Assembly (NCBI GenBank): GCA_023898465.1
Contig: CP060223.1
Coordinates: 32,001 to 96,000, forward strand
Length of the DNA: 64,000 bases
DNA from: Candidatus Nomurabacteria bacterium
Lineage (GTDB): Bacteria > Patescibacteriota > Patescibacteriia > HK-STAS-PATE-3
Reading direction: 5' to 3'
Shown: positions 21,446 through 58,379 of the stretch, in pieces
Position numbering within the stretch: position 1 is the first letter of the stretch
How the letters are laid out: each line of letters opens with the position of its first letter
Made by a program: the position numbers and the translations under genes
Notes under the pieces: model-generated
Seen by the model: the letters and a program-made list of their open reading frames with translations, nothing else
What the model was told of the DNA's origin: nothing
Databases searched by the model: none

Positions 21446-21460
21446 TCAACGAAGGAGGTC

Positions 21461-23862: not shown

Positions 23863-23902
23863 CACACCAAGGCTGGGATGCCTTGGCTAGTTGTTATTAC
23901 CT

Positions 23903-23930
23903 TGAAATTCAGGCCATTTTTTGCTATACT
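23903..23930 (+). promoter_or_regulatory. promoter TTGAAA-16-TATACT
   Basis: ttgaaattcaggccattttttgctatact lies just upstream of the 23940 ATG. Confidence 0.45.
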
Positions 23931-23939
23931 GCACCTACC

Positions 23940-27331: not shown

Positions 27332-30300
27332 GTGGAACGATTGAAACAAAGAAAAGTCAGAATAGGGGAAAAACGCCAATTTAGAAAAACAAGGGGGAAA
27401 ACTCTTGGGAGTGGTGGCGTATTTTTGCGTCGTCGAGCAAAGAAAAAAACCCTAGGTTTTCGACAGTTTATTACACGTTCTGTTCGCCTAAGCCCTCGTC
27501 CAGCGCTTATTGGCGCTTTTGTGGCGCTCGCAGCCCTGGGTGGCATTTGGTATTGGTATGCCCGTTCATCTTTTGCTGTATCGGAAATCTACACATTTAG
27601 CAGCCAATCTGAATGGGAATCAGGTGAGTATTGGCTTCACCAACTCGATACGAAAACGTCAGCTGGTGATATTTCTATAGCTAGTGGAAGTGTTGGGTCT
27701 TGGGATGCTGGTACTCCGGGATATCCAGCAAACGAGCGGGGAAATCCTACCATCGTTCCAGAGGGCACGAATTATGGTGCCGATTTAGTGACTGATGGAT
27801 ATTACGTATACATGATCGTGGGAGGTCGGCAGCCAGGCTTCTTCCGTTACAACCCAGACACTAACACCTGGAAGTCATTAGCCGATGCGCCAACTTCTTT
27901 CTACTATGGAAGTGCGCTGACTTACTACGATGGAAAGATATACGCCATCAATGGACAAGAGGGTGATCCAAGCGCTGATTATTCCGCCGTGCTTTTCAGT
28001 TACGATATTGCTACAGATCTTTGGACACGCTTGGCAGATGCGCCATCAAACTGGGGGCTTGGGTCAGATATCATCAGTGGTCGCAATGGTAAGCTCTACG
28101 CGGTTAAAGGACAAAGCACCGACTTTTTCTGGTCATATAACATTTCCAACGACACTTGGAGTGATACCCTGCCGAGTATTCCGGCTCCCTATCAAATCTA
28201 TACTACCAATAGCCACACCTTAGAATTTTCTGATGTGTCCTACGGAGGGCCCGATCCAGTAAATTGTGAGGCTGGTTGTATTTATGCTTTTCGTGGGAAC
28301 AATAATCGGCAATTTTTACGATTTGATATCCAGTTGAATCAATGGGTAACTGGATTTGCCGATATTCCTTCAGCAATACGCGGAATACATTATGGAAGCT
28401 CGATGGCCTTTGATGATGTGAATGGTATGATGTACGCCTTTACCGGAGGAAACGATGATGAATTTGTAAAATATGATATTGCAAATGAAACCTGGGATGC
28501 CGACACCTTGGATACGCCGGACGCACCTCGCGCAGTATATTACGGCGGGGCGCTTGTGTATTTACAAGGCTACGTGTATGGAACTCTAGGAAGTAACCTG
28601 AGTGAGTTTGTTCGTTACGATGTCACTGCAGGTGAATGGAATTCAATTGTAAGTCCAGCCGCCTCCAGTACTAATGTTAATAATCCAGAAGATGAACTCA
28701 TGGCCTATGTGCCAAACGGTGCGGATTGTGCTGATGCCGATGGTTGTCTTTTCTTAGCACGTGGATCAAATAGTAACACTTTTTGGCGCTATGATATTGG
28801 AGCAAAAACCTGGAATTCACTTACGAACATCACTGCCAGCGTCTATTATGGCGGCTCATTATGCTACGACGGTAACAACAATATTTTTATTGCTCGAGGC
28901 GCAAATACTACTTCTGTCTATAATTACAGTATTAGCGGTAATAGCTTTTCTTCACTAACCTCACCAGGCGCGATTGGAAATGGTGGGGCGATCACATGTT
29001 TAGGCGATAATAACTTTTATCTTTTGCGGGGAAATAACCAGCCGAGTTTTTATCACTACAATGGTTCATGGACGACAGAAACAAATATCCCGGTTGCTCA
29101 GGCAAACCTCGGTGCAGCGGCAACGAATGATGGAACTTATATTTACGTGATGGCCGGTAACTTACGCGGGAGCTTTTTCCGTTTTGAGCCGGGCGTCGGT
29201 TGGACTGAGTTACCTGGATTGCCTACCTCATCCTACTATACCGGAACACTGGAATACGATGGTGTGGATAGTATTTATGCAATTGCCGGACGCTATGAAA
29301 AAGACTTTTGGCGCTACGATATTACTGATCAGACTTGGAATCGTATCACTGATTTGCCAGGCCGTTTTGTAAACTCCCATGCCGCTGCTCATGATGATGC
29401 GAATGATATTCTCTATTTACTCCGAGGTTTCGGCACATCATCTATCTATCGCTTCAATACAGAAACAGATGCGTATATCCCGAGTGCAAATTGGGTTTCA
29501 CCAATTATCGACCTCACCTATGTTTCATCGTTTACGAGTTTTGGTGACTCAGCAACTACACCAGGCTCAACTTCTTTTACCTACGAGTCTCGTACTTCCG
29601 ACGATAAAGTAAATTGGTCAGCTTGGCAGACGATTACCGGAGGCACAAGCATTCAATCTCCTACCAATCGGTATATTCAGATCAAGATAACTTTTAACTC
29701 TGACGACACCAATACTCCAACGCTCTCCAGCTTCAGCATCACCTATGAAAAAGATTCAGTTGATCCGACAAACCCGACAATCACCGGGTATTCCAACAGT
29801 GGCAAAACCGCAACCCTAAATTCTGGATCTTCCTATTACCATACCAATCCTTACTTTGAATTCTCGGGTGCTAGTGATGCCGAGTCTGGTGTAGTCGGCT
29901 ACTATGTTGCCTGGACGACAAACGCGACGCTTGATCCAAGTGCGGATGAAGACTATTTCCAGACAAGCGAGTCCTTTGAAGTAAATACCAGTTTACAAAC
30001 GAGCGCGCCTGGTCCGAATTATTATCTCCGCATCGCAACAAAAGACGGGGCGGGTAATGTCTCAACGCCGCAAACTGCTTTTACCTATGTATACTCCGGT
30101 ATCTCACCGGCTTCAGCAACAACTTGGACAACCCAAGGTGACTTTGAGACAAGCGGAACAAGTGGCACAAATGTGAATACTGCGGCTAATAGTGGCGTTG
30201 ATCTTACCTTAAGCTCCATTACTGATGGCGTATGGACAAACGAAGCGCCAACTCCTAATAACGTTAGTCATGGTGCTAGCTTAGCCTATGACGGAAACGA

Positions 30301-35854: not shown

Positions 35855-37282
35855 CGAGATAAGATAGGGTAAAAATCCTTTTTGGGTTTGAAAAAACTCA
35901 GAGTGTTTTGTTGTTGACGAAATGATGAAAATATATCAAAATAAAACGGTAGTTTAACTTTTCTTTACTGAAAGAAAAAGGGGGATTTGGCTTGAAGATT
36001 AGCCAAGGAAAGAAAAAACAGGACTGGAAGGCTAGAAAAAAGAGAAAGTCAGGAAGATTCAGCCTTTTCAGTAATTTTTTTCAGAAAAATCGACGTCGTC
36101 AGACTAAACTGGAGCAACCCCACAGCTTAAAGCCTGGGGCTGTTTTATTGCAGCTTTTTAGACAGACGCGACGTTACCGGGCTCAACAGCTTGTCTCTAT
36201 TAGTCTGGCAATTGTTTTGCTCTTGGCTTTTGGTTTTCAAATGTTTGTTGTAGCGGCGCCACCTGAAACTGCTTTTACGACGGTAAGCTCCGATGCTGAA
36301 TGGAATATGGGCACGCTTGAAGATGTCACTGTGAATAGTGGCAGCATTGAAATTTCTGGAGACGGGGGAGCTGGCTGGTTGAGTGGATGGCAAAATAGGC
36401 AGCCGGTCACAATTACCAATACCGGTTCAGCGCAGACAAACTATCAAGTAAGAGTTGATGTTACCTATGATGCCAAAATGCAGGCGGATTTTGATGATTT
36501 ACGTTTTGCAAAAGCTGATGGCACTGAGCTGGACTTTTGGCTGCAATCTAAAGTTGATTCTACCTCAGCCGTTGTTTGGGTGGAGGTGGATTCTTTGGCT
36601 GGATCGGGCGATACGGTGATCTACATGTATTACAATAATTCTGGCGCTTCGAGTACATCGGACGGAGCGGCGACTTTTCCTCTCTTTGATGATTTCAATG
36701 ATGCAAGTATAGACACGGGTAAATGGGTAGAAGTTGATCCCAGCTCAAAAATTGATGAATCAGCCGGATCGCTCCGTTTCCTTTACGGGTCTGGTAGTGG
36801 AGCATGGAATGCAAGTGTGTATGGCGTCACTTCTTTTACGCGGGCGGATTGGAGTTTTGAGTGGGATCAAACTTGGATTAGCGATTATAATCCATATGAC
36901 GCCTTCATGTTTGGCTGGAAAGATGATGGCGGAGCGGTAAGTTACACAAATCTCGTGTATGGCTACTACAATAGTGGGTCGGGTTTTTGTACAACGAACT
37001 GTACAGGGAATGTGTATGAAGATGGGAATAGTCGGGGAAATGCTGGAGTATGGGACAAAGATGTAACGTATAATCTGCGGGTTCGCATGCGAAGTGCTGG
37101 CGGAGCTTACTATGAAAAGAGTACAAACAATGGGGGATCATGGACAACCGATTATACAAGCACCTATTCAACTGAGGCTTCTCTTCATCCAGCCTGGATG
37201 CATTACGCAGGTGATTATTTGATTGATAATGTGCGGGTACGTAAATGGATGGCAAGCGAGCCAAGTCTTGTCTTTGGCACCG

Positions 37283-39380
37283 AAGAATCCGCCCTCCAAT
37301 CACCTGGGACCTACACCTCCCACAACCTTGATCTCCAGTATATCTACCAATGGGGAGACTGTGCCTCTGGCTGTAATGACTCTTCCACTGCCTTCACTAC
37401 CAACATCACGGTTCCCAGTAACACCTCAGTCCAGTTTGAACTCCGCCATTCAGCTGACGGCTCCACCAACTGGTCATCATGGACATCCCTGGCTACCTAC
37501 ACTACCTCTGGTACCAAAACGCTCACCCGAGGAGACCTAGTGGGTCTCATTGGTGATATCTTCAATCGTTATGTCCAAACTCGGATTACGCTGACCTCCT
37601 CAGATGGGAGTAGTAATCCTTCCATCGCTGACTACCGCTACGACTACACCAGAGAAACTGATCCGCCCAGTAATCCCAACACGCAGAATGGCTATGCCTC
37701 GAATGGAGGAGCAGCCATTACTTCAGGTAATTGGTACAACCATCCAGCTCCCTACTTCACCTGGAGTGGCGCCAGTGACACTGATGCTGGTATGTCCGGA
37801 GGCTACTCCGGCTACTGGGTCTGCTTTGGCACCTCATCCTGTGAACCTACCTCTGGTACCTTTGTGTCTTCCGCTGCCTACACGGCTGGGAGTCTCACTA
37901 CCAATACGACCTACTACCTCCGCATCAAAGCGAGAGATGCTGCCGGCAATGTGGCCACCTCAGCCTACGATGCCTTTACCTACAAATACGACGCCACCCC
38001 ACCAGCCAATCCCTCTGGTATCCTGCCTGATCCGGCTGGCTTTACCAATGTGAATGACTTTGACTTCACCTGGAATACCGGCTCCGATGCGGGTGGCTCT
38101 GGTATTGCTGAATACTGCTACAAGACCGGAGAAGATGGCTATGTCGAAACCTGTACCGCCTCCACCTCAGTCACGGGTATTACTGCCTACCAAGAAGGAG
38201 CCAATATCTTTTACGTGAGAAGTAAAGATATCGCTGGCAACCTCCCCACCTTCTACACCCAGGTCTCTTACTACTACTCTGCCAATGCGCCTTCACCACC
38301 GCAAGGACTCGAGGTGGACCCCACAGAGAACACGGCCAACTCCTTTACCTTTACCTGGCTACTTCCCGCCTCCTACTCCAATCCGATTGCCACCTACCAT
38401 TACTCGGTAAATGCCTTACCCACGGCAAGTAACACGACCGCAACGACCAACCTCAGTGTCGGTCCTGGTGCCTTTGCCACCCAACAAGGCACGAACATCT
38501 TCTATGTCGTCGCCAAAGACACCGCTGGCAACGTGGAATGGGACTCCTACGCTGCAGTTGAGTTCACCGCCAATACCACTGCTCCAGGTATTCCAACTGG
38601 TGTGACCCTGACAGACTCATCCATTCGGGCCCAGAACAAGTATTCCCTCACCCTCACCTGGGATGCTCCAGAGAACGAAGGCTCAGGTATTGATCACTAC
38701 GTCATTGACCGCTCAACCACTATCGGCTGCAGTGATGGTTCAGGTACCTGGGTCCAGCATGCCACCACCACCGCTGAAGGCTACTTTGATCCGAATCTTT
38801 CCAATACCACGACCTACTGCTACCGCGTGAAGGCAGCCGACAATGCCGGAGCCCAATCCGCCACCTCCTCTATTGTCTCCATGCGTCCAGAAGGCCGCTT
38901 CACTGAACCTCCAGAACTCATTGGCTCCCCAGGGGTTGAAGCCTACATCCAGTCGGCGACCGTCGAGTGGCTGACTGATCGCGAAGGCAGCTCCTTTGTG
39001 GAGTTTGGCACGTCCTCAGATACTCTTGATCGTGTCATGGGCCAAGACGACTTTGTGACCAGTCACAGTGTCACCCTCCTCGACCTTGATCCGGCTACTA
39101 CCTACTACTATCGTACGAAATACACTGACCAAGACAGTAATACCGGCTATTCTTCAGTCCTCTCCTTTACCACTGCTGATGCACCGTCAGCTCCGACCAA
39201 CCTCAGTGTGGACCCAGAGAGTAATACCCGAAACTCCTTTACCTTTGCCTGGGATCCCCCCAGTGATGCTGGAGTCACTATTCAAGGCTACTTCTACAGT
39301 GTGAATGATGTCCCCACCAGTACGAATACCTCCTTCACTGCTCAGCAAGAGCTTGGCCCTGGCGCATATGCCACGAGACA
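37283..39380 (+). repeat. about 2-kb shared stalk module, copy in P2
   Basis: Near-identical at the nucleotide level to 42287-43969 (P3) and 47464-49410 (P4). From 37990 it also matches 53300-54700 (P5). Encodes ESALQSPGTYTSHNLDLQYIYQWGDCASGCND... through ...APSAPTNLSVDPESNTRNSFTFAWDPPSDAG. Confidence 0.85.
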
Positions 39381-40311
39381 AGGGAGAACGTCTTCTACCT
39401 TGTCGCTATTGATGAAGGAACAATGTGAACTACGACAACTATGCTGCAGTCGCTTTCACTGCCACGACCCCCGCTCCTGCCATCCCCACCGGCCTCATCA
39501 TTACCGATGCCTCGAACCGAGAAACTGAAGACTACTCTATTGCCTTGAAGTGGAAAGCAGTGACCACTGAACAAGCCGGTAGCCTGGAAGATGACGCGGT
39601 GACCTACGAGATTCTCCGTTCCACTGATGGAGACAGCTTCTCCACCGTGGCCAACATTACCTCGACTGGCTACCTGGACGTCGATCTCGACAATACGACG
39701 GAGTATTACTACCAAGTGAAAGCCAAAGACTCCGCCGGCGCTGCTTCAGCTCCTTCGACCACCGTCTCAGATATCCCTGAGGGGAGATATACCACTCCAC
39801 CGGAGATTACCAAAGCCCCCCACGTTACTCCTTCCAGCTTCTCAGCCAAGGTAGAGTGGAGTACTGGACGGCCAACTACCTCCTTTGTTCAATTTGGCAC
39901 TAACCCCGCCTCATTAACAGAAGAGCAGGGTACTTCAAACCTTATCGCTGACCACGAGGTAACCATTGAGGGTTTGCAGCCTGAAACTACGTATTCATAT
40001 AGAGTAAAAAGTGTTGATGTGGATGGAAACATTTCACATTCAAGTGTTGCTACATTTACCACCCAGGCTGCTCCACGTGTTTCAAATGTAGGCATCAGCG
40101 ACGTACGTTTATTTGATGCTCTCATTAGCTGGGAAACAAATAAAGCGACCACAACTTCACTTGAGTATGGCACCACCACGAACTATGGTACAACGGTGAG
40201 CGATGCAACAGGATCAACTACCACATCTCATTTATATAAGTTAGAGAATTTGCAAGATGACACGCTCTACCATCTTCGTTTCCGTGGCGTTGATGCAGAA
40301 GGGACGCAAGT

Positions 40312-40999
40312 TAGTTCCGACGACTACACCTTCACCACCCTGACTTTCCCCCGGGTCGAGAACATCACCTGGGCTAATCAAGCCGAAGGCGAGACCGAAG
40401 TGCAATGGACTACGAATGTCCCCACCACCTCCCAAGTGGAATATTACAACGAAACTACTCCAGCCAAGACCCAAGGTAATACGGTCCTGACCACGGAACA
40501 CTCCGTCCTCCTCTTTGGCCTCGACGATGCCACCATTTACCAATTCCAAGTCCGAGGCACTGACCAATTTGGCTACGAAGCCATCTCAGATGAGCAAGAG
40601 TTCCGTACCCTGGAAGATACTACCCCTCCAGTCGTGAGTAATGTGCAGGTAGAGTCCAATACCATTGGCTCAGGTGAGCTCTCTCGTGTGCAGATCATTG
40701 TCCGCTGGACCACCAATGAGCCTACCTCTTCTCAAGTCCGCTTTGGTGAAGGAAATAACCTTTCCTCTGAATCAGATGTGAACCCAGAGTTAGTCTATGA
40801 TCACCTCCTTGTCGTCTCAGACCTAGAACCAGCGAGAACCTACAATATTCAAGCTATTGCCGTCGACAAAGCAGGGAATAGTACTGACTCTGATACCTAC
40901 CGAGTGCTTACCACCCGTCGGAGAGATTCCTTCCTCCAACTGGTCATTGGCAACCTGGAAGACACCTTTGCCTGGTTTACTAATATTGGAGGACTCTGA
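40312..40999 (+). repeat. about 0.7-kb conserved C-terminal module (TLTFPRVENITWANQAEGETEVQWTTN...RRRDSFLQLVIGNLEDTFAWFTNIGGL), copy 1 of 4
   Basis: Near-identical DNA at 45306-45998, 50505-51180 and 55635-56318. The P1 version (35195-35854) is conserved only at protein level. Confidence 0.85.
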
Positions 41000-43969: not shown

Positions 43970-45305
43970 AATGGTTAACAGATCGTGAGGCGAATTCATT
44001 TGTTGAATTCGGAGTAGCGTCTGACACTTTGGACCGAATTATGGGACAGGACGATTTCGTTTCCTCGCATACAGTACAATTATTGGATCTAGAGCCTGCC
44101 ACAACATATTATTATCGAACCAAGCATACTGATCAGGATAGCAATACTGGTTACTCTACAATTTTGTCATTTTCAACGGCGGACGCCCTCTGCTCCAACA
44201 AATTTGACCGTGAGCCCAGAAAGCAACACACGCAATTCATTTACTTTTTCATGGGATGCGCCAAGTGATGAAGGAGTAGATGCAGGGATATTTCTACAGT
44301 ATTAATGACGTGCCAACTAGTACAAACACTTCCTTCACTACGCAAACTGAATTAGGTCCAGGTGCATATGCTAGCCGGCAGGGTGAAAATGTGTTTTATG
44401 TAGTAGCGATCGATGATGCAAATAATATTAATTATAGTAATTACGCAAGTATTTCATTTAGTGCTGAAACCCCCGCTCCTGCCATCCCCACCGGCCTCAT
44501 CATTACCGATGCCTCGAACCGAGAAACTGAAGACTACTCTATTGCCTTGAAGTGGAAAGCAGTGACCACTGAACAAGCCGGTAGCCTGGAAGATGATGCG
44601 GTGACCTACGAGATTCTCCGTTCCACTGATGGAGACAGCTTCTCCACCGTGGCCAACATTACCTCGACTGGCTACCTGGATGTCGATCTCGACAATACGA
44701 CGGAGTATTACTACCAAGTGAAAGCCAAAGACTCCGCCGGCGCTGCTTCAGCTCCTTCGACCACCGTCTCAGATATCCCTGAGGGGAGATATACCACTCC
44801 ACCGGAGATTACCAAAGCCCCCCACGTTACTCCTTCCAGCTTCTCAGCCAAGGTAGAGTGGAGTACTGACCGTGATGCTGATTCCCACGTAGAATATGGC
44901 AGCACCTCAGATCTCACTGAAGAGCAAGGGACGATTGATGAAACTGATGAACATAGCATCCAACTCGAAGGACTCCAACCAGAAACGACCTATTACTACC
45001 GCATTCGTTCACGTGACCAAGATGGCAATGTAGCCCTCTCGAGCATCACTACCTTTACTACCTTGGAGGCACCGAGGGTGTCAAACGTAAAGATAAGCGA
45101 CATTCGTTTATTTGATGCTTTTCTTACTTGGGATACGAATGTTGCTTTAACTACTGAACTTGAGTATGGCATTTCTACAAATTACGGAACCATTGTGAGT
45201 GATGCCACAGCCTCAAGAACAACCAGCCACACGGTAAGACTGCAAAACCTCACTGATGGTACACTTTACCACTTACGTTTACGAGGAACAGATAGTGAAG
45301 GAAAC

Positions 45306-45998
45306 TTACTTTTGTCCGACGACTACACCTTCACCACCCTGACCTTCCCCCGGGTCGAGAACATCACCTGGGCTAATCAAGCCGAAGGCGAGACCGAAGT
45401 GCAATGGACTACGAATGTCCCCACCACCTCCCAAGTGGAATATTACAACGAAACGACTCCAGCCAAGACCCAAGGTAATACGGTCCTGACCACGGAACAC
45501 TCCGTCCTCTCCTCTTTGGCCTCGACGATGCCACCATTTACCAATTCAAGTCCGAGGTACTGACCAATTTGGCTACGAAGCCATCTCAGATGAGCAAGAG
45601 TTCCGTACCCTGGAAGATACTACCCCTCAGTCGTGAGTAATGTGCAGGTAGAGTCCAATACCATTGGCTCAGGTGAGCTCTCTCGTGTGCAGATCATTGT
45701 CCGCTGGACCACCAATGAGCCTACCTCTTCCCAAGTCCGCTTTGGTGAAGGAAATAGCCTTTCCTCTGAATCAGATGTGAACCCAGAGTTAGTCTATGAT
45801 CACCTCCTTGTCGTCTCAGACCTAGAACCAGCGAGAACCTACAATATTCAGGCTATTGCCGTTGACAAAGCAGGGAATAGTACTGACTCTGATACCTACC
45901 GAGTGCTTACCACCCGTCGGAGAGATTCCTTCCTCCAACTGGTCATTGGCAACCTGGAAGACACCTTTGCCTGGTTTACCAATATTGGGGGGTTGTAG
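45306..45998 (+). repeat. conserved C-terminal module, copy 2 (carries indels)
   Basis: tccgtcctctcctctttgg has 2 extra nt relative to the other copies. caattcaagtcc and tacccctcagtcgtg each lack one C. Confidence 0.8.
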
Positions 45999-47423
45999 CA
46001 TAGAGAAAGTTGAAGAAGTTTTAGGAATTTCCTGATTTGACTAAATCAAGGAAAAATTTTACAATATAACAACAAAAAATAATTTTAATTTGCGAAATTA
46101 AGGATTTTGGCTTGAAGATTAGCCAAAAAATTTTTTTCGGGGAAGAGAAAAAGAGCCAAGGCTCAAATATCTCAAGCACGAAAAAAACAAGACTTCAAAG
46201 CTATCTAACTGGTAGCATGCTTCATAGAAAAGAAAAAAACCAGGCAACTCTGCGCGTGGTTTTTTTGTGCTGACAAAAAAATATCGCCTGCAGTCAGTCA
46301 TCTCGGTAATGCTTGCCATTACTTTAGGTTTCGGCATTTTTTGCAGTTTAATGCAATTGCCGCTCCACCAGAAGCCACTTACATTGAAGTAACTTCAGAC
46401 GCAGACTGGAACATGGGCACCTTTTGAGCGATGTTACAGTGAATAGCGGGAGTATTGAGATCTCCGGAGATGGGGGAGCGAACTGGATAGCAGAGTCTGG
46501 CTGGCAATTCAGACAGCAATTGACCTTTGATGCATCTTCATTAAGTGCTCCAGTCGCCAATATGCCGATTATGGTGCATATCAGTGCATCCAACACTGAC
46601 TACTGGGGCGAAGTGACCTCAAGAGATGAAACCCGTTTCGGCGATAGCGATGGTACGGCTTTAGACTTTCATTTTGAGAAATTTGATGATGCCAATGATG
46701 ATGCGATTGCCTGGGTAGAAGTGCCTCAGGTTGATAATGCTGATACCGACTCCATCTATCTTTACTATGGAAATGATGCGGCAACGAATGGTGAAGATGG
46801 GGCGGGCACCTATGATAATGATGGGAATTTTCAGGGTGTATGGCACATGAATAATGCAACCAGCACCACAATCAGCGATAGTACTGGACATGGTTATACC
46901 GGTACAAAGGGTGCGAGCACGGCTGCCCCAACTCAGGTCAACGGACAAATTGGTTATGCACAATCTTTCGACGGCGGTGACTATATTGATTTTGGCAACG
47001 TTCTTAATCCAGGAAGTAATGATTGGACTGTAGAAATTTGGTTTAAAACAACTTCAAATGGGAGTCCTAGTTCACGAATTCTCTATAATAAAGAGAATTT
47101 GTACGAGGCTGCGGCAGCCGGAAGTTCTTACCACGACTACGCCTGGCAGCCGCACTGGGCTTGGGATGGAGGAACTGCTTTTTCCGTTACAAATAATGTT
47201 TGGCATTTGTCTGGGACGACATACGATAAGTCCAAGCAACGTTTATATAAGAATGGTGTCCTTGTGTACAACCGGGACCAGGGTGGCGTCATGGGGACAA
47301 CCACTTCACGCTTACAATTTGGCGCCCGAGGAGATACTGGGCACTCATCTTTTTATATTGGAGAGATTGATGAAGTGCGCATGTCGAGTACGGCTCGGAG
47401 CGCAGACTGGTTAGCCTTAGCGC

Positions 47424-49410
47424 ATCTCTCCGAAACCGACACCCTCATCTCGACCTGGGGAAGTGAAGAATCCGCCCTCCAATCACCTGGCACTTACACC
47501 TCCCACAACCTTGATCTCCAGTATATCTACCAATGGGGAGACTGTGCCTCTGGCTGTAATGACTCTTCCACTGCCTTCACTACCAACATCACGGTTCCCA
47601 GTAACACCTCAGTTCAGTTTGAACTCCGCCATTCAGCTGACGGCTCCACCAACTGGTCATCATGGACATCCCTGGCCACCTACACCTCCTCTGGTACCAA
47701 AACGCTCACCCGAGGAGAGATGGTCACCCTCGTAGGCGATATCTTCAATCGTTATGTCCAAACCAGAATTACCCTCAGCTCCTCAGATGGCAGTAGTAAT
47801 CCTTCCATCGCTGACTACCGCTACGACTACACCAGAGAAACTGATCCGCCCAGTAATCCCAACACCCAGAATGGCTATGCCTCGAATGGAGGAGCAGCCA
47901 TTACTTCAGGTAATTGGTACAACCATCCAGCTCCCTACTTCACCTGGAGTGGCGCCAGTGATACTGATGCTGGTATGTCCGGAGGCTACTCCGGCTACTG
48001 GGTCTGCTTTGGCACCTCATCCTGTGAACCTACCTCTGGTACCTTTGTGTCTTCCGCTGCCTACACGGCTGGGAGTCTCACTACCAATACGACCTACTAC
48101 CTCCGCATCAAAGCGAGAGATGCTGCCGGCAATGTGGCCACCTCAGCCTACGATGCCTTTACCTACAAATACGACGCCACCCCACCAGCCAATCCCTCTG
48201 GTATCCTGCCTGATCCGGCTGGCTTTACCAATGTGAATGACTTTGACTTCACCTGGAATACCGGCTCCGATGCGGGTGGCTCTGGTATTGCTGAATACTG
48301 CTACAAGACCGGAGAAGACGGCTATGTCGAAACCTGTACCGCCTCCACCTCAGTCACGGGTATTACTGCCTACCAAGAAGGAGCCAATATCTTTTACGTG
48401 AGAAGTAAAGATATCGCTGGCAACCTTCCCACCTTCTACACTCAGGTGTCCTACTACTACTCGGCCAATGCCCCTTCACCACCCCAGGGACTTGCGGTTG
48501 ATCCTACCGAGAACACGGCGAACTCCTTTACCTTTACCTGGCTACTTCCCGCCTCCTACTCCAACCCGATTGCCACCTACCACTACTCGGTGAATGCCTT
48601 ACCCACGGCAAGTAACACGACCGCAACGACCAACCTCAGTGTCGGTCCTGGTGCCTTTGCCACCCAACAAGGCACGAACATCTTCTATGTCGTCGCCAAA
48701 GACACGGCTGGCAACGTGGAATGGGACTCCTACGCTGCAGTTGAGTTCACTGCCAATACCACTGCTCCAGGTATTCCAACTGGTGTGACCCTGACCGACT
48801 CATCCATTCGGGCCCAGAACAAGTATTCCCTCACCCTCACCTGGGATGCTCCAGAGAACGAAGGCTCAGGTATTGATCACTACGTCATTGACCGCTCAAC
48901 CACTATCGGCTGCAGTGATGGTTCAGGTACCTGGGTCCAGCATGCCACCACCACCGCTGAAGGCTACTTTGATCCGAATCTTTCCAATACCACCACCTAC
49001 TGCTACCGCGTGAAGGCAGCCGACAATGCCGGAGCCCAATCCGCCACCTCCTCTATTGTCTCCATGCGTCCAGAAGGCCGCTTCACTGAACCCCCAGAAC
49101 TCATTGGTTCCCCAGGGGTTGAAGCCTACATCCAGTCGGCCACCGTCGAGTGGCTGACTGATCGCGAAGGCAGCTCCTTTGTGGAGTTTGGCACGTCCTC
49201 AGATACTCTTGATCGTGTCATGGGCCAAGATGACTTTGTGACCAGTCACAGCGTCACCCTCCTCGACCTTGATCCGGCTACTACCTACTACTATCGTACG
49301 AAATACACTGACCAAGACAGTAATACCGGCTATTCTTCAGTCCTCTCCTTTACCACTGCTGATGCACCGTCAGCTCCGACCAACCTCAGTGTGGACCCAG
49401 AGAGTAATAC
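47424..49410 (+). repeat. shared stalk module, copy in P4
   Basis: Near-identical to the P2 and P3 copies, with scattered synonymous differences (for example ccagc/ccggc). Confidence 0.85.
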
Positions 49411-50504
49411 CCAGAAACTCCTTTACCTTTGCCTGGGATCCCCCAGTGATGCTGGAGTCACTATTCAAGGCTACTTCTACAGTGTGAATGATGTCCCCCA
49501 CCAGTACGAATACCTCCCTTCACTGCTCAGCAAGAGCTTGGCCCTGGCGCATATGCCACGAGACAAGGGAGAACGTCTTCTACCTTGTCGCTATTGATGA
49601 AGCGAACAATGTGAACTACGACAACTATGCTGCAGTCGCTTTCACTGCCACGACCCCTGCTCCTGCCATCCCCACCGGCCTCATCATTACCGATGCCTCG
49701 AACCGAGAAACTGAAGACTACTCTATTGCCTTGAAGTGGAAAGCAGTGACCACTGAACAAGCCGGTAGCCTGGAAGATGATGCGGTGACCTACGAGATTC
49801 TCCGTTCCACTGATGGAGACAGCTTCTCCACCGTGGCCAACATTACCTCGACTGGCTACCTGGATGTCGATCTCGACAATACGACGGAGTATTACTACCA
49901 AGTGAAAGCCAAAGACTCCGCCGGCGCTGCTTCAGCTCCTTCGACCACCGTCTCAGATATCCCTGAGGGAGATATACCACTCCACCGGAGATTACCAAAG
50001 CCCCCACGTTACTCCTTCCAGCTTCTCAGCCAAGGTAGAGTGGAGTACTGACCGTGATGCTGATTCCCACGTAGAATATGGCAGCACCTCAGATCTCACT
50101 GAAGAGCAAGGGACGATTGATGAAACTGATGAACATAGCATCCAACTCGAAGGACTCCAACCAGAAACGACCTATTACTACCGTATTCGTTCACGTGACC
50201 AAGATGGCAATGTAGCCCTCTCGAGCATCACTACCTTTACTACCTTGGAGGCACCGAGGGTGTCGGATGTGGTCATTTCTGATATCAAACTTTACGATGC
50301 GCTTATTGCGTGGAAAACAAACAAGGCAACAACAACGGTTTTGGAATATGGTACGACTGAGCAATACGGCCAAAGTCTCGCAGATACTTCTGGGTCCCTT
50401 ACCACGAACCATATTGTGAAGCTTGATAGCTTAACCGATGATACACTGTATCATTTCCGTCCTACTGGTTTCGACGAGAGCGGGAATGCTCCAGAGAGTA
50501 GCGA

Positions 50505-51180
50505 CTACACCTTCACCACCCTGACCTTCCCCCGGGTCGAGAACATCACCTGGGCTAATCAAGCCGAAGGCGAGACCGAAGTGCAATGGACTACCAATGT
50601 CCCCACCACCTCCCAAGTGGAATACTACAACGAAACTACTCCAGCCAAGACCCAAGGTAATACGGTCCTGACCACGGAACACTCCGTCCTTCTCTTTGGC
50701 CTCGACGATGCCACCATTTACCAATTCCAAGTCCGAGGCACTGACCAATTTGGCTACGAAGCCATCTCAGATGAGCAAGAGTTCCGTACCCTGGAAGATA
50801 CTACCCCCCCAGTCGTGAGTAATGTGCAGGTAGAGTCCAATACCATTGGCTCAGGTGAGCTCTCTCGTGTGCAGATCATTGTCCGCTGGACCACCAATGA
50901 GCCTACCTCTTCCCAAGTCCGCTTTGGTGAAGGAAATAACCTTTCCTCTGAATCAGATGTGAACCCAGAGTTAGTCTATGATCACCTCCTTGTCGTCTCA
51001 GACCTAGAACCAGCGAGAACCTACAATATTCAGGCTATTGCCGTTGACAAAGCAGGGAATAGTACTGACTCTGATACCTACCGAGTGCTTACCACCCGTC
51101 GGAGAGATTCCTTCCTCCAACTGGTCATTGGCAACCTGGAAGACACCTTTGCCTGGTTTACCAATATTGGGGGGTTGTGA
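50505..51180 (+). repeat. conserved C-terminal module, copy 3
   Basis: Intact frame; 99 % identical to copies 1 and 4. Confidence 0.85.
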
Positions 51181-54100
51181 TGAGTCGACGGATGCGACAT
51201 TTTAGCGTAGGACATAAAGGATTAACTCCGAGAGTAAGTCGGAAAAACTCACGTCATTCAAAATTATCACGATATAAGTCAAGATATCACGTTCAAGTTA
51301 TTCTCACCTTGACGGTTCTTGTTTTTGCTTCAGTGTTTGGGGTAGCTATTCCATACCTACAAGCGGTTCCAACAAATAATACCGAGACCTTTACGCTGAG
51401 TAGCGATTTTAGTGGAGGGGTATTAACTGATGTTGATGTGAGTAATGACGAAATTAAACTGTCTGGAGGAGCGGAAAATTGGTGGGACGCAAACTATCAA
51501 TATCGTCGACAACTTACGGTTACAAATGATTCTGCTGGAACTGCTGAAGTAGGCACAACAGCTACCATCAGCATTGATACTTCGGCGCTTGAGACAGCAG
51601 GGAAGTTGCGTTCAGATCGTAATGACTGGCGAGTAGTATATTGGAACGGCTCGAGTAATGAAGAGCTTGATCGTGTCTACGAAAGTACTAGTTCGACTGT
51701 TTTTGCTATTCAGGCCACTATCGCGGGAAGTGGTGGATCAAGTAGTGATTATTATGTGTACTACGGGTACTCAAGTGAGTCCTCAACTCCGCCAAGTACG
51801 GTGGGTAACGTAAAGACGGTACTCAGCATGCATACAACCGCTAACCAAGTTTTAACAAGTGGAGTTACAAACCTTGGTATTGCTACTGACGGTGACTACG
51901 TTTACATGTCAAATGGGTCTCAGTTATCAAAACTTAACCTTGATGGGTCATTAGTTGGCACTAAGACAGTGAGTATTGGTGGTGCAAATAGAGGACTCGG
52001 TTTTGCTGATGGACGGGTTATTGGTCGAGACTTAAGTAATAATCTTTATGCGTATGACTGGGATAGCTCAACATTATCTCCATTGAGTATTCCAGGTGGA
52101 CATCCACTTTTATCAGGTCAATCCTGGATGAATCATAATCTTGTGACTGATTCGAGCGATCGGATTGGTACCGTGCAGTATGCATCTGGCGGTATGATTC
52201 TGCGTCGCTACACTATTAGTGGTAACACGCTCACTTGGTTAGATGATATCACCCTAGGTGGAACCTATCACTCAGTAGATAATCATGGCTTTACTATGAG
52301 CAACGACTATCTCGTAATGGTGAGTTATAGTGATGGATGGCGACGATGGAGCTTGCCTGATGGTACAGAGGAAGTTGACTTTGGGAATTTTGGCGGGACT
52401 GGTACAAATACTGAAACTCACCCTAGTGGGATGTCGAATCCAACTTTTATTGATTATAACTGGAAGACCGGGGAAATATATCTTGGTGACTATAGTTCAG
52501 CTGAGTATTTTCGATATGCTAATGAAGCTTTAGTTACTTCTCCTACTTTATCTGTTACTGATGGAGGTGAAGTTGGATCACTTACTCCTATTGGTACCTT
52601 TGCTTCAAATCAAACTGATACAGGGGATGACGCATTTATAAATCTTGCTCGCATCTTTGCCTGGGGGAGTGGTGGCGGTGATAGTGATACAGCATTTACC
52701 GCAAACGTAACGATGAGCGATCCTTCTCATTCGACACTTAGCTTTGAGCTACGTAGTGCTTCATCTATTGCTAATCTAGCGTCAGCAACATATTACTCAC
52801 TTGGCTCGCCAACGAGCTCTGGTGCATATACGCTGACCAAAGGACAGATGGATGCTTTAAATAGTGGAAGCGGGGTTTTACCCTCCAGTGTGAATAAGTA
52901 TTTTCAGTTACGCATTTCATTTACCTCAAGTGATGGCTTAGCCAACCCTTCAGTGCAGGATTTTGCTTTTCATTATCAGGAAGACAACGACGCCCCATCA
53001 CCACCATCGCCGGTTAACGGAGCTGGGTATGATGAAGAGGGTGGAGATGTCATCTCTCAAACTACCTGGTATAACTACCCAACTCCATACTTTACTTGGG
53101 ATGATGCCATAGATGGAGATTCTAGTATTGATGGGTATTATGTTTGCTTTGGAACTAGCAGTTGCGATCCAAGCGCTGGTTCCTATGTGACTACTGCAGA
53201 GTATACTGCAGTGTCGTTAACAAGCAATCAAAAGTATTCTTTACGAGTGAAGGCTCGTGACACTGCTGGGAATGTTTCTGCAACCTTCTCGGTATTTGAA
53301 TATTGGTACGACGCCACCCCACCAGCCAATCCCTCTGGTATCCTGCCTGATCCGGCTGGCTTTACCAATGTGAATGACTTTGACTTCACCTGGAATACCG
53401 GCTCCGATGCGGGTGGCTCTGGTATTGCTGAATACTGCTACAAGACCGGAGAAGATGGCTATGTCGAAACCTGTACCGCCTCCACCTCAGTCACGGGTAT
53501 TACTGCCTACCAAGAAGGAGCCAATATCTTTTACGTGAGAAGTAAAGATATCGCTGGCAACCTCCCCACCTTCTACACCCAGGTCTCTTACTACTACTCT
53601 GCCAATGCGCCTTCACCACCGCAAGGACTCGAGGTGGACCCCACAGAGAACACGGCCAACTCCTTTACCTTTACCTGGCTACTTCCCGCCTCCTACTCCA
53701 ATCCGATTGCCACCTACCATTACTCGGTAAATGCCTTACCCACGGCAAGTAACACGACCGCAACGACCAACCTCAGTGTCGGTCCTGGTGCCTTTGCCAC
53801 CCAACAAGGCACGAACATCTTCTATGTCGTCGCCAAAGACACGGCTGGCAACGTGGAATGGGACTCCTACGCTGCAGTTGAGTTCACCGCCAATACCACT
53901 GCTCCAGGTATTCCAACTGGTGTGACCCTGACAGACTCATCCATTCGGGCCCAGAACAAGTATTCCCTCACCCTCACCTGGGATGCTCCAGAGAACGAAG
54001 GCTCAGGTATTGATCACTACGTCATTGACCGCTCAACCACTATCGGCTGCAGTGATGGTTCAGGTACCTGGGTCCAGCATGCCACCACCACCGCTGAAGG

Positions 54101-56318
54101 CTACTTTGATCCGAATCTTTCCAATACCACGACCTACTGCTACCGCGTGAAGGCAGCCGACAATGCCGGAGCCCAATCAGCGACCTCTTCTATTGTTTCC
54201 ATGCGTCCAGAAGGCCGCTTCACTGAACCCCCAGAACTCATTGGCTCCCCAGGGGTTGAGGCCTACATCCAGTCGGCCACCGTCGAGTGGCTGACTGATC
54301 GCGAAGGCAGCTCCTTTGTGGAGTTTGGCACTGCTGCAGATACCCTTGATCGCATCATGGGCCAAGATGACTTTGTGACGAGTCACAGTGTCACCCTCCT
54401 CGATCTTGAGCCAGCCACCACCTACTACTATCGTACGAAATACACTGACCAAGACAGTAATACCGGCTATTCTTCAGTCCTCTCCTTTACCACTGCTGAT
54501 GCACCGTCAGCTCCGACCAACCTCAGTGTGGACCCAGAGAGTAATACCCGAAACTCCTTTACCTTTGCCTGGGATCCCCCCAGTGATGCTGGAGTCACTA
54601 TTCAAGGCTACTTCTACAGTGTGAATGATGTCCCCACCAGTACGAATACCTCCTTCACTGCTCAGCAAGAGCTTGGCCCTGGCGCATATGCCACGAGACA
54701 AGGGGAGAACGTCTTCTACCTTGTCGCTATTGATGAAGCGAACAATGTGAACTACGACAACTATGCTGCAGTCGCTTTCACTGCCACGACCCCCGCTCCT
54801 GCCATCCCCACCGGCCTCATCATTACCGATGCCTCGAACCGAGAAACTGAAGACTACTCTATTGCCTTGAAGTGGAAAGCAGTGACCACTGAACAAGCCG
54901 GTAGCCTGGAAGATGACGCGGTGACCTACGAGATTCTCCGTTCCACTGATGGAGACAGCTTCTCCACCGTGGCCAACATTACCTCGACTGGCTACCTGGA
55001 CGTCGATCTCGACAATACGACGGAGTATTACTACCAAGTGAAAGCCAAAGACTCCGCCGGCGCTGCTTCAGCTCCTTCGACCACCGTCTCAGATATCCCT
55101 GAGGGGAGATATACCACTCCACCGGAGATTACGAAGGGTCCAAATGTAACCCCGGATTCATTTGAAGCAGGCATTGCCTGGGAAACCGATCGAGACGCAG
55201 ACTCGCATGTTGAGTACGGGACGAATTCTTCTTTAGGGGAGGAACAGGGTACAATCGATGAGACTGACGATCATTCCGTCCAACTCGAAGGACTCCAACC
55301 AGAAACGACTTATTACTATCGCATTCGTTCACGTGACCAAGATGGCAATGTAGCCCTCTCGAGCATCACTACCTTTACTACCTTGGAGGCACCTTTTGTT
55401 TCTGAAGTGCTTGTCTCAGATATTCGCCTCTATGATGCATATATTAATTGGACAACAAATAAAGCGACCACAACTTCACTTGAGTATGGTACTACGACTG
55501 GTTATGGACAGACTATTACTGACACTTCAGGATCACTCACAACAACCCATACCGTACATTTAGAGAATTTAACTGACGATACCACATACAATTTTAAGCC
55601 AACAGGAGTGGATATTACTGGCAATAACCCGGCGAGTGGTAACTACACCTTCACCACCCTGACCTTCCCCCGGGTCGAGAACATCACCTGGGCTAATCAA
55701 GCCGAAGGCGAGACCGAAGTGCAATGGACTACCAATGTCCCCACCACCTCCCAAGTGGAATATTACAACGAAACTACTCCAGCCAAGACCCAAGGTAATA
55801 CGGTCCTGACCACGGAACACTCCGTCCTTCTCTTTGGCCTCGACGATGCCACCATTTACCAATTCCAAGTCCGAGGCACTGACCAATTTGGCTACGAAGC
55901 CATCTCAGATGAGCAAGAGTTCCGTACCCTGGAAGATACTACCCCTCCAGTCGTGAGTAATGTGCAGGTAGAGTCCAATACCATTGGCTCAGGTGAGCTC
56001 TCTCGTGTGCAGATCATTGTCCGCTGGACCACCAATGAGCCTACCTCTTCCCAAGTCCGCTTTGGTGAAGGAAATAACCTTTCCTCTGAATCAGATGTGA
56101 ACCCAGAGTTAGTCTATGATCACCTCCTTGTCGTCTCAGACCTAGAACCAGCGAGAACCTACAATATTCAGGCTATTGCCGTTGACAAAGCAGGGAATAG
56201 TACTGACTCTGATACCTACCGAGTGCTTACCACCCGTCGGAGAGATTCCTTCCTCCAACTGGTCATTGGCAACCTGGAAGACACCTTTGCCTGGTTTACC
56301 AATATTGGGGGGTTTTAA
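51180..56318 (+). CDS. giant surface protein P5 (about 1710 aa): intact. Basic N-terminus plus TM, DUF2341-like segment, propeller-like region, shared Fn3-like stalk and conserved tail
   Basis: GTGATG start overlaps the P4 stop. WWDANYQYRRQLTVTNDSAGTAEVGTTATISIDTSALETAGKLRSDRNDWRVVYWNGSSNEELDRVYE is DUF2341-like. A single uninterrupted 1713-codon frame. Ends ...RRRDSFLQLVIGNLEDTFAWFTNIGGF. Confidence 0.8.
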   Translation: MSRRMRHFSVGHKGLTPRVSRKNSRHSKLSRYKSRYHVQVILTLTVLVFASVFGVAIPYLQAVPTNNTETFTLSSDFSGGVLTDVDVSNDEIKLSGGAENWWDANYQYRRQLTVTNDSAGTAEVGTTATISIDTSALETAGKLRSDRNDWRVVYWNGSSNEELDRVYESTSSTVFAIQATIAGSGGSSSDYYVYYGYSSESSTPPSTVGNVKTVLSMHTTANQVLTSGVTNLGIATDGDYVYMSNGSQLSKLNLDGSLVGTKTVSIGGANRGLGFADGRVIGRDLSNNLYAYDWDSSTLSPLSIPGGHPLLSGQSWMNHNLVTDSSDRIGTVQYASGGMILRRYTISGNTLTWLDDITLGGTYHSVDNHGFTMSNDYLVMVSYSDGWRRWSLPDGTEEVDFGNFGGTGTNTETHPSGMSNPTFIDYNWKTGEIYLGDYSSAEYFRYANEALVTSPTLSVTDGGEVGSLTPIGTFASNQTDTGDDAFINLARIFAWGSGGGDSDTAFTANVTMSDPSHSTLSFELRSASSIANLASATYYSLGSPTSSGAYTLTKGQMDALNSGSGVLPSSVNKYFQLRISFTSSDGLANPSVQDFAFHYQEDNDAPSPPSPVNGAGYDEEGGDVISQTTWYNYPTPYFTWDDAIDGDSSIDGYYVCFGTSSCDPSAGSYVTTAEYTAVSLTSNQKYSLRVKARDTAGNVSATFSVFEYWYDATPPANPSGILPDPAGFTNVNDFDFTWNTGSDAGGSGIAEYCYKTGEDGYVETCTASTSVTGITAYQEGANIFYVRSKDIAGNLPTFYTQVSYYYSANAPSPPQGLEVDPTENTANSFTFTWLLPASYSNPIATYHYSVNALPTASNTTATTNLSVGPGAFATQQGTNIFYVVAKDTAGNVEWDSYAAVEFTANTTAPGIPTGVTLTDSSIRAQNKYSLTLTWDAPENEGSGIDHYVIDRSTTIGCSDGSGTWVQHATTTAEGYFDPNLSNTTTYCYRVKAADNAGAQSATSSIVSMRPEGRFTEPPELIGSPGVEAYIQSATVEWLTDREGSSFVEFGTAADTLDRIMGQDDFVTSHSVTLLDLEPATTYYYRTKYTDQDSNTGYSSVLSFTTADAPSAPTNLSVDPESNTRNSFTFAWDPPSDAGVTIQGYFYSVNDVPTSTNTSFTAQQELGPGAYATRQGENVFYLVAIDEANNVNYDNYAAVAFTATTPAPAIPTGLIITDASNRETEDYSIALKWKAVTTEQAGSLEDDAVTYEILRSTDGDSFSTVANITSTGYLDVDLDNTTEYYYQVKAKDSAGAASAPSTTVSDIPEGRYTTPPEITKGPNVTPDSFEAGIAWETDRDADSHVEYGTNSSLGEEQGTIDETDDHSVQLEGLQPETTYYYRIRSRDQDGNVALSSITTFTTLEAPFVSEVLVSDIRLYDAYINWTTNKATTTSLEYGTTTGYGQTITDTSGSLTTTHTVHLENLTDDTTYNFKPTGVDITGNNPASGNYTFTTLTFPRVENITWANQAEGETEVQWTTNVPTTSQVEYYNETTPAKTQGNTVLTTEHSVLLFGLDDATIYQFQVRGTDQFGYEAISDEQEFRTLEDTTPPVVSNVQVESNTIGSGELSRVQIIVRWTTNEPTSSQVRFGEGNNLSSESDVNPELVYDHLLVVSDLEPARTYNIQAIAVDKAGNSTDSDTYRVLTTRRRDSFLQLVIGNLEDTFAWFTNIGGF
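53300..55140 (+). repeat. shared stalk module, copy in P5
   Basis: tacgacgccaccccaccagccaatccctctggtatcctgcc onward matches P2 37990, P3 42990 and P4 48170. Confidence 0.85.
55635..56318 (+). repeat. conserved C-terminal module, copy 4
   Basis: Intact frame. Confidence 0.85.
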
Positions 56319-56367
56319 GAATTCTTTAATCTATGGTATAGTATTCAAGTAAAAAATACAGACCGAC

Positions 56368-57090: not shown

Positions 57091-57093
57091 AGT

Positions 57094-58314: not shown

Positions 58315-58333
58315 TTTTTCCAAAAACGAATAA

Positions 58334-58368: not shown

Positions 58369-58379
58369 TATCTATCAGG

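Follow-up and report, generated by a model that had tools for sequence, protein, structure and literature searches.

Distinct heads on near-identical stalks: a tandem array of five giant-protein genes in a Patescibacteria genome, probably shaped by gene conversion

How do neighbouring genes come to hold kilobases of near-identical DNA in common when each has a head of its own, and are such repeats genuine? The question is raised by five co-directional paralogous genes, P1 to P5, at positions 27332-56318 on the + strand of a 64,000-nucleotide (nt) stretch of a Candidatus Nomurabacteria bacterium genome (assembly GCA_023898465.1, contig CP060223.1, positions 32,001 to 96,000). This stretch is referred to as the window, and all positions count within it. 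The organism belongs to the Patescibacteria, or candidate phyla radiation (CPR), and its genome of ~1.1 Mb, represented by a contig of 1.08 Mb, agrees with the reduced genome supposed in the initial annotation, which was made from the letters of the window. We conclude, with a probability of roughly two in three, that the locus is a genuine five-gene tandem family in which the stalks and tails are kept alike by gene conversion among P2-P5 and the heads escape, and that the frameshifts in the array are most likely errors. The initial annotation had correctly recognized five co-directional tandem paralogues over this interval. Its statement that each encodes a protein of 1.7-2.8 thousand amino acids (aa) holds for P1 and P5, which are continuous, but P2, P3 and P4 are split by frameshifts. 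The genes are as follows.

27332..35854, + strand: P1, an intact open reading frame (ORF) of 2840 aa, with a basic N-terminus and hydrophobic segment, multiple Kelch propellers, a stalk of fn3/PAP_N type and a tail that has diverged.
35992..40999, + strand: P2, a paralogue with a DUF2341 head, ~1669 aa if repaired; ORF pieces 35992-39528 and 39425-40999.
40999..45998, + strand: P3, with a DUF2341 and Laminin_G_3 head, ~1667 aa when repaired, with a start that overlaps the stop of P2.
46119..51180, + strand: P4, with a DUF2341 and Laminin_G_3 head, ~1690 aa if repaired; TTG start.
51177..56318, + strand: P5, an intact ORF of 1713 aa, with a distinct head that has a propeller-like core; its start overlaps the P4 stop.

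The direct repeats in P2-P5 have a start-to-start spacing of 4999-5184 nt and a DNA identity of 98-100%, and the units measure ~5.0-5.2 kb; near-identical stalk DNA thus recurs four times at a period of about 5 kb, as had been claimed. The near-identical blocks themselves were found to span 0.3-1.5 kb at 98-100% identity; the size first given was 0.7-2 kb. The uninterrupted runs at 93% identity or more were 1560 nt (P2/P4), 1415 nt (P3/P4), 1043 nt (P2/P5) and ~680 nt (the tail, in all four). A four-way alignment showed that the head DNA is unique to each copy and lies between near-identical blocks, which confirms the placement proposed earlier. The blocks and cassettes were delimited as follows.

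P2 37279-37980, P3 42283-42984, P4 47462-48163, + strand: block A, near-identical in P2, P3 and P4 only (P5 36-57%).
P2 37981-39023, P3 42985-43967, P4 48164-49206, P5 53301-54343, + strand: block B, near-identical in all four, with 0 indels.
P3 43970-44462; P2 39024-39460, P4 49207-49650, P5 54344-54782, + strand: cassette C, in a P3-specific version that is 63-77% identical to the version common to P2, P4 and P5.
P2 39460-39819, P3 44462-44821, P4 49650-50000, P5 54782-55141, + strand: block D, near-identical in all four.
P5 55142-55631, P2 39872-40311, + strand: cassette E, ~490 nt, or roughly 1-2 Fn3/PAP_N domains, of which P2 and P5 each have their own version.
P2 40311-40995, P3 45310-45994, P4 50494-51176, P5 55632-56314, + strand: block F, the tail, ~680 nt, with the last Fn3/PAP_N domain and the C-terminal helix.

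At cassette C, P3 alone differs at 159 sites between columns 3486 and 4086 of the alignment. In cassette E, P3 and P4 are identical over the first ~215 nt (44874-45089 and 50055-50271, respectively) and 52% identical thereafter.

The closest paralogue changes from block to block along P2-P5. Sites that divide the copies two against two were spatially clustered, within 3 kb, and grouped P2 with P3 against P4 with P5 at 30 sites, P2 with P4 against P3 with P5 at 10 sites, and P2 with P5 against P3 with P4 at 38 sites. All three possible partitions of four copies are therefore supported, so that a single tree fails and recombination among the copies explains the pattern. P2-P5 are a gene-conversion mosaic, beyond simple duplication, and the gene conversion between cassettes that had been proposed is borne out by the switching of partners and the incompatible partitions. 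The codons that differ within the blocks comprised 92 synonymous and 24 non-synonymous cases, plus indels; the differences are thus mostly synonymous, but they are not the exclusively synonymous scatter described at first. This excess of synonymous changes is the imprint of purifying selection on all copies. As the synonymous sites are homogenised too (98-100% DNA identity over 0.3-1.5 kb), protein-level constraint alone is ruled out. The P1 tail is 64-66% identical to those of P2-P5 at the protein level, and the P1 stalk and tail are 60-65% identical in DNA, which places P1 outside the recent conversion tracts. The C-terminal tail, thought to be invariant in P1-P5, is so in P2-P5 and not in P1.

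To place the array among its relatives, species-representative genomes were scanned, which gave 80 loci, the best-scoring ones mainly from Patescibacteria. The closest homologue (43%) lies in a metagenome-assembled genome (MAG) of candidate division WWE3 (locus L002), which has Kelch-type, DUF2341-type and P5-type genes in an order that matches the array, with stalks of only 60-78% DNA identity. Tandem arrays of 2-3 paralogues were found at six loci (L002, L011, L014, L021, L032 and L037), compared with five paralogues here. The tails are 64-91% identical within the present genome, 89% within the WWE3 MAG, 90% within L011 and 73% within L014, and 28-41% between genomes. Across genomes, the head of P2 shows 65% identity to a head of L014 (L014_b) and 50% to one of L011 (L011_b), and that of P5 shows 47% to its WWE3 counterpart; over these loci, the neighbouring ATP-binding cassette (ABC) ATPase reaches only 44-50%. 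This comparison of heads and stalks with related genomes had been suggested in the initial annotation, and its outcome was that stalks and tails cluster by genome and heads by type. With tails genome-specific and heads type-specific, concerted evolution of stalk and tail, together with retention or import of heads, becomes a property of the family. The same process operates in other lineages, and the heads appear to be old and the array not a recent duplication. Orthologues with Kelch heads (~30% over 1400 aa) were present directly 5' of ABC genes in L003, L004, L007, L009, L010 and L013.

The P2 head (35992-37278) has its 65% match at L014 12349-16476, in a MAG labelled as Saccharibacteria; the tails of the two are 28-32% identical and the ABC ATPases ~50%. 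The sequence comparison suggests that the P2 head, or the gene, arrived by horizontal transfer and was then subject to local tail conversion.

These comparisons also bear on whether the repeats are simply young. A 5-kb gene could have been duplicated in tandem recently, with heads and internal cassettes then replaced by foreign or diverged DNA. The WWE3 locus has one DUF2341 gene against three in this genome, the start contexts of P2 and P4 are identical, and the unexpected closeness of the P2 head to that of the Saccharibacteria MAG suggests horizontal acquisition. However, the clear WWE3 orthologue of P5, which has the same head, marks the P5 gene as old, and even so the P5 stalk matches those of P2-P4 at 98-100% identity. 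The partner switching and the incompatible partitions need recombination among the copies in any case, and tails that are more alike within a genome than between genomes recur in WWE3, L011 and L014. We give recent duplication a small chance.

The junctions between the genes are coherent. The overlapping stop and start codons that had been placed at 40999 and 51180 are both present (TGATG at 40997-41001 and GTGATG at 51177-51182), and a Shine-Dalgarno-like GGAGGA, read directly, is located in the last codons of P2, 7 nt before the P3 ATG. P3 and P5 are predicted to be translationally coupled to P2 and P4, respectively. P2 and P4 have the same context of ribosome-binding site (RBS) and start, with 25 identical nt and a TTG start, and promoter-like sites are present before P2 (35914-35942) and before P4 (TTGACT-17-TACAAT, 46037-46065). 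In the scan for promoters and terminators, the matches did not exceed what shuffled sequence would give, and the two intergenic promoter-like sites are therefore no more than suggestive. Together with the identical RBS and start, these sites mean that P2 and P4 are not obviously silent cassettes.

Independent assemblies were used as a check on the repeats. The Illumina-only Logan contig L001 (SRR12358676) is identical to window positions 56285-64000 (100%, gapless) and begins 34 nt inside the P5 tail, and L085, a contig of a second assembly, begins at 56276. Short-read contigs that end exactly at the repeat edge are as expected of a true repeat. A 2875-nt short-read scaffold from another sample (L084, SAMN08389244) has the ABC gene after an open frame of 662 codons, in which P5-type sequence gives way to the P3-specific cassette E, with 0-1 mismatch per 100 nt, and this in turn to the common tail. 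Copy-specific modules thus exist outside the present assembly, although L084 may be chimeric, a short-read path across identical blocks of 300-700 nt. Exact-protein look-ups with P5, P1, the NHL-repeat protein encoded upstream of the array and a P3 fragment returned no contigs, and a scan of JGI metagenomes with a 30-mer from the tail gave no match.

These data address the explanation that the array, or a part of it such as P3 against P4, is an artefact in which strain variants are strung together or a repeat is duplicated, the stretches rich in indels being weak joins. In its favour, the genome was assembled from a metagenome, clusters of indels are located in P4 and at block boundaries or close to them, and short-read assemblies of the same organism fragment at the array. 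Against this, the heads differ from unit to unit (27-49% aa identity), and every unit has single-nucleotide differences and cassettes specific to it. The junctions carry overlapping stop and start codons, a Shine-Dalgarno-like site within tail codons and the promoter-like sites before P2 and P4; relatives have tandem arrays of 2-3 paralogues; and the P3-specific cassette was found independently in L084. An assembly artefact is very unlikely.

Frameshift positions were obtained by aligning the four 5-kb units together with the independent contig L084. P2 has two frameshifts (-1 at 39382 and -1 at 39418). P3 has five (-2 at 44184, -2 at 44280, +2 at 45507, -1 at 45547 and -1 at 45628) and falls into three or more pieces. 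P4, in four or more pieces, has seven 1-nt indels at 49413-50001 and at least four frameshifts at A6-T7 runs within 46119-46424. In tblastn searches with the three homologues of the WWE3 MAG, the matches passed straight across the frame changes, and this continuity identifies P2-P4 as interrupted genes rather than separate small ORFs. Nearly all of the indels are 1-2 nt long, and most lie in homopolymers (C/G or A/T runs). The seven P4 indels stand beside only 9 substitutions in 737 nt, and the adjoining blocks of 1.0-1.4 kb have none. At the P4 N-terminus, at least four frame corrections are needed within 300 nt, yet the piece 46424-49597 is open over 1057 codons.

On the strength of their small size, homopolymer bias and hyper-clustering, and of differences of a purifying type rather than decay, we judge it likely that the frameshifts in P2-P4 are uncorrected long-read consensus errors and not biology. 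A hybrid assembly that bridged tangled repeats by long-read consensus would leave local error islands of exactly this kind. The probable source studies, on activated sludge from Shatin, Hong Kong, are Illumina and Nanopore hybrids (PMC8518188, PMC10031880), which is a lead and not proof. The 7.7 kb flank, in which all 131 homopolymers of at least 4 nt (11 of them at least 7 nt) are perfect against Illumina, was listed among the grounds for error and was also counted toward real indels. The P5 protein is present in GenBank as USN53612.1, which is identical except for a start 5 aa later. No products of P2-P4 were found in the searched protein collection, which holds P5, consistent with P2-P4 having been annotated as pseudogenes. 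The P4 5' region (46100-46430) contains five homopolymers of at least 7 nt in 331 nt, compared with 11 in the 7.7 kb flank. The Lys/Phe-rich n-regions of the signals of the array genes are by nature prone to slippage, be the frameshifts real or not. Simple homopolymer phase variation was rejected, as single genes carry from 2 to more than 10 indels.

The frameshifts could also be read as the mark of a cassette-type variation system, in which P5 (and P1) would be expressed and P2-P4 would be silent donors, with segments copied from them into the expression gene at high frequency; the altered heads or internal cassettes would vary host range or evade recognition by phage or host, as in pilE/pilS, vlsE, msp2 and MgPa/MgPar. 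In the sequence, P1 and P5 alone are uninterrupted, the stalk of P5 is pieced together from segments that it has in common with different upstream copies, and the gene beside the ABC transporter in the independent sample has the P3-type cassette E, not the P5 type. Antigenic variation in giant Patescibacteria proteins has already been speculated upon (PMC11809585). We nevertheless regard such a system as improbable. The indels are error-like, that is, homopolymer-biased, hyper-clustered and free of accompanying decay, and L084 is possibly a short-read chimera. P2 and P4 have promoter-like sites and RBS/starts, P3 and P5 are coupled, and the units are full-length, unlike promoterless truncated cassettes; the synonymous-biased differences place all copies recently under coding constraint. 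Neither dedicated recombination machinery nor an element resembling a G-quadruplex turned up, though no search was aimed at either.

Ongoing or programmed head-swapping, or antigenic or host-range switching of the kind to which the initial annotation had compared the locus, is not shown, and no reverse transcriptase (RT), invertase or dedicated recombinase lies by the array. A diversity-generating retroelement was rejected because none of the window ORFs scanned has an RT domain, and an invertase or shufflon because there is no recombinase near the array and there are no inverted repeats.

The domain content of the five proteins agrees in most respects with the earlier description. P1 matched Kelch_6 (104.8 bits, 1e-30), Kelch_1 (75.8 bits) and Pur_ac_phosph_N (PAP_N, 2e-15) in Pfam, with no DUF2341, so that the Kelch-like repeats claimed for it are confirmed. 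DUF2341 (PF10102, gathering cut-off 23.4) was matched by P2 (90.3 bits, 1e-25), P3 (50.7) and P4 (53.5), and Laminin_G_3 (PF13385, gathering cut-off 27.6) by P3 (67.2 bits) and P4 (55.5 bits). The DUF2341-like plus LamG-like heads of P3 and P4 are thereby supported; of the P2 head, described as DUF2341-like plus ConA-like, only the first part stands, since no ConA or LamG match was found in Pfam. P5 matched fn3 (2e-34) and PAP_N (2e-31), and fn3/Pur_ac_phosph_N matches in all five proteins agree with the shared stalk that had been claimed. The DUF2341-like part proposed for the P5 head gave no match at E ≤ 0.1, and the propeller-like part comes from a low-confidence model. In this AlphaFold2 model, made from a shallow alignment, the mean confidence (pLDDT) was 54 and the confident core resembled 5-bladed propellers with a TM-score of 0.5-0.56 normalised to the target, which supports a generic beta-propeller core only. 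P5 and P3 are alike only in the N-terminal ~110 aa (31%) and in the domain after the head (36%). As the flanks are homologous, the variable head is an internal cassette, roughly aa 110-430. The N-termini have a long basic stretch and a hydrophobic segment followed by AAA, VAA or LQA. The short basic N-terminus with one transmembrane (TM) helix was thus right as to the basic and hydrophobic parts; the helix is equally like a cleavable Sec signal peptide, in which case the N-termini would not be permanent anchors. A type I secretion system (T1SS) RTX adhesin was rejected, as there were no RTX or HlyD Pfam matches and the N-termini are Sec-like.

The C-termini carry a conserved helix-like motif, ...RRRDSFLQLVIGNLEDTFAWFTNIGG(L/F), with the family consensus ..ESFLQLIIxNLExTFxW... 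No LPXTG motif or terminal TM segment was found at the C-termini, which read ...DSFLQLVIGNLEDTFAWFTNIGG(L/F) directly before the stop (e.g., ...FAWFTNIGGL), and a C-terminus without LPXTG does not fit a sortase-anchored wall protein. A library search with the last 152 aa returned 2686 representative proteins at E ≤ 1e-10 (444 at E ≤ 1e-30), a count driven largely by the repeated Fn3/PAP_N domains of the query. Among the best 150 tail matches, with lengths of 0.7-6.3 thousand aa, the best-matching stretch reached the protein C-terminus in ~66, as read from the table. Of the first 60, roughly half visibly have the C-terminal motif. The family is without a model in NCBIfam.

Directly downstream of P5, two genes encode a putative ABC system.

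56368-57090, + strand: ABC ATPase (PF00005, 109.4 bits).
57094-58314, + strand: MacB_PCD/FtsX permease (PF12704, 71.8 bits; PF02687, 78.3 bits).

Judging from these domains, the pair is a type VII (MacB/LolCDE/FtsEX-like) ABC system. The MacB-type system that had been claimed at this place is therefore present, as ABC_tran followed by MacB_PCD/FtsX. The best NCBIfam matches were LolD, MacB and FtsE, and all scores fell far short of the equivalog cut-offs (LolD 210 against 308, MacB 81 against 966, FtsX 37 against 255). In related loci with room downstream, an ABC ATPase and permease start within 450 nt 3' of a family tail in 27 of 36, which makes the transporter a conserved operon partner and not a chance neighbour. 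At L014 (16536-18899), directly after two tandem giant paralogues, the ABC ATPase and MacB/FtsX permease are fused in one ORF of 787 aa. Members with both tail and ABC genes also occur in records labelled as non-Patescibacteria, namely, L007 (CP011212.1, candidate division TM6) and, under Gammaproteobacteria/Pseudomonadales, L013, L015, L017, L022 and L024. These labels may come from mis-binning or mislabelled third-party assemblies rather than reflect the true distribution. A transposon-sequencing study of Southlakia listed no PF10102 or PF16656 proteins, so that it gave no homologue with a phenotype; its essential Fn3/VCBS genes SEML1_0890 and SEML1_0891 are small (195 and 565 aa).

On this reading, the proteins are built, from the N-terminus, of a Sec-type signal or anchor, a short conserved leader domain, the variable head, the long Fn3/PAP_N stalk and a C-terminal amphipathic helix. 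Repeated non-reciprocal homologous recombination among P2-P5 keeps the tail and the greater part of the stalk at 98-100% DNA identity, and the heads and two internal cassettes of ~0.5 kb escape homogenisation, leaving a patchwork of block partners. A head acquired or retained by one gene comes to stand on the resident stalk. The heads would be ligand- or host-binding modules shown at the stalk end. Through the C-terminal helix, all of the paralogues would engage a single partner in common. The most plausible candidate is the extracytoplasmic domain of the co-transcribed MacB-type permease, and the role would be anchoring, release or ATP-driven mechanotransmission. Docking of the tail to one partner would explain why it must stay uniform; compatibility selection plus tandem homology would keep the tails so. 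Only tentatively, as a possible but doubtful extension, do we propose that helix and MacB-type ABC system form a Patescibacteria-wide system, so far undescribed, that anchors, releases or mechanically actuates giant Fn3 proteins, with the fit to this machine driving homogenisation of stalk and tail, and with heads and single Fn3 cassettes shuffled between paralogues and strains as a host-range or attachment repertoire of episymbiotic bacteria.

Several points weigh against a genuine family kept alike by gene conversion, with frameshifts that are errors and a tail that docks to the transporter. Copy number, copy order and indels are given by the assembly alone. Some of the indels lie in copy-unique DNA (P3 44184 and 44280, and the P4 N-terminus), where short-read polishing should work, and P3 and P4, at the least, may be genuine pseudogenes. 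Blocks of at least 90% identity within a locus were found in 0 of the 80 related loci, most of which are in short-read MAGs; the extreme homogenisation is thus particular to this genome, and such repeats would not assemble in short-read MAGs. The WWE3 relative has no ABC genes beside its array. The adhesin function and the docking of tail to transporter are read from architecture and gene neighbourhood only, and no homologue with experimental data was found.

The gene directly upstream of the array is the NHL plus FG-GAP gene that had been described there, as follows.

23883..27185, + strand: secreted propeller protein with NHL-repeat, TIG and FG-GAP/VCBS domains (NHL 6e-33, FG-GAP_3 4e-26); 1100 aa from a TTG, with M19 as the likely start, giving 1082 aa.

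Only 1 weak match to this gene was found beside the family in 82 loci, and the neighbourhood is not conserved. Directly 5' of it, four co-directional ORFs (20335-23757; 194, 202, 450 and 314 aa) have no Pfam match and a G+C content of 0.51-0.57, compared with ~0.46 around them; the two larger ones are multi-pass membrane proteins. Further upstream, 14850-19945 is a neighbourhood of competence and pilus flavour.

14850-15179, - strand: TfoX_N protein.
15498-16487: PIN_12 protein.
16746-16820: tRNA-His, abutting the XerC/D-type recombinase.
16846-17799, - strand: XerC/D-type tyrosine recombinase.
17934-18893, - strand: regulator with cNMP-binding and GAF domains.
18896-19945, - strand: PilT-like T2SSE ATPase.

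The array of the WWE3 relative is directly followed, on its 3' side, by a complete type IV pilus cluster (L002 15219-24476). A truncated fragment of an IS200-like Y1 transposase is present at 1552-1932 (profile positions 49-89 of 121 matched). Three genes 3' of the ABC system, and on L001 too, a small protein at 60991-61536 matches Pfam Host_attach (PF10116)/baeRF family 12. Also downstream are a HAMP-domain protein (62030-62935) and a bacterial TSP3-repeat protein (63372-63962), which may be further envelope components.

CPR bacteria are thought to live attached to hosts, and the molecules behind their host specificity are largely uncharacterised. The locus gives testable candidates for an attachment apparatus and for the diversification of its specificity, from a family that is large and uncharacterised and that combines swappable distal modules, a genome-specific stalk, a C-terminal peptide and a conserved ABC partner. 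Short-read MAGs break at such arrays, and in hybrid or long-read assemblies the arrays gather indels that go uncorrected. The genes may then be taken for pseudogenes by annotation pipelines and be dropped from protein databases, as apparently happened here.

In comparison with known systems, the array proteins resemble MSCRAMM and SasG/Aap proteins and the T1SS adhesins SiiE and LapA (PMC6272769) in placing an N-terminal or distal module, here putatively ligand-binding, on a long Ig/Fn3-like rod and, like the T1SS adhesins, have an adjoining ABC transporter gene. Unlike these monoderm and T1SS adhesins, they have no LPXTG, no RTX or T1SS features, a Sec-like N-terminus, and an ABC system of MacB/FtsX type, not a membrane fusion protein/TolC exporter. 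Type VII systems (FtsEX-PcsB/EnvC, LolCDE and MacAB) act on extracytoplasmic partners rather than transporting across the membrane. The array permease is like theirs in having a MacB periplasmic core and an FtsX domain, with a LolD/FtsE-like ATPase, which would fit a docking or actuation role. To our knowledge, a type VII ABC system partnered with a giant Fn3 protein has not been described so far.

Giant proteins with FhaB and DUF2341 domains are known from Patescibacterium danicum, as single genes of more than 4000 aa without full-length homologues, and domain reshuffling in giant DUF2341-bearing Patescibacteria proteins has been mentioned before (PMC11809585). A tandem array, near-identical stalks, a C-terminal helix and ABC linkage are not described in that account (PMC11809585). 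No prior description was found in the literature of an array with kilobase near-identical stalks around distinct heads and single-domain cassettes, of the family-wide C-terminal helix, or of a phylum-wide coupling to a MacB-type ABC system. The concerted evolution of a tandem surface-protein family is itself a phenomenon of a known kind.

The antigenic variation systems pilE/pilS (Neisseria), vlsE (Borrelia), msp2 (Anaplasma) and MgPa/MgPar (Mycoplasma genitalium) combine a single expression site with partial donors that lack promoters, and they are seen to switch within clonal populations. The array is like them in the near-identical flanks around variable cassettes and in the mosaic genes, and its small genome parallels that of Mycoplasma; unlike in those systems, the units are complete genes, with translation starts that are their own or coupled. 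In the tandem lipoprotein (lpl) cluster of S. aureus, recombination between conserved parts reshuffles variable parts (Tsuru and Kobayashi 2008, PMC2568036). Both loci consist of tandem co-directional surface-protein paralogues, with a conserved unit that reaches from the end of an ORF into the beginning of the following one; in the array, the tail codons supply the RBS and overlapping start for the gene that follows. The array differs in its genes of 5-8.5 kb, its Fn3 stalks, the conservation of most of the gene, the CPR host and the MacB-type ABC system. Of the tandem paralogue clusters that evolve by recombination, the lpl cluster is a close formal counterpart of the array; the cassette antigenic variation systems are looser ones.

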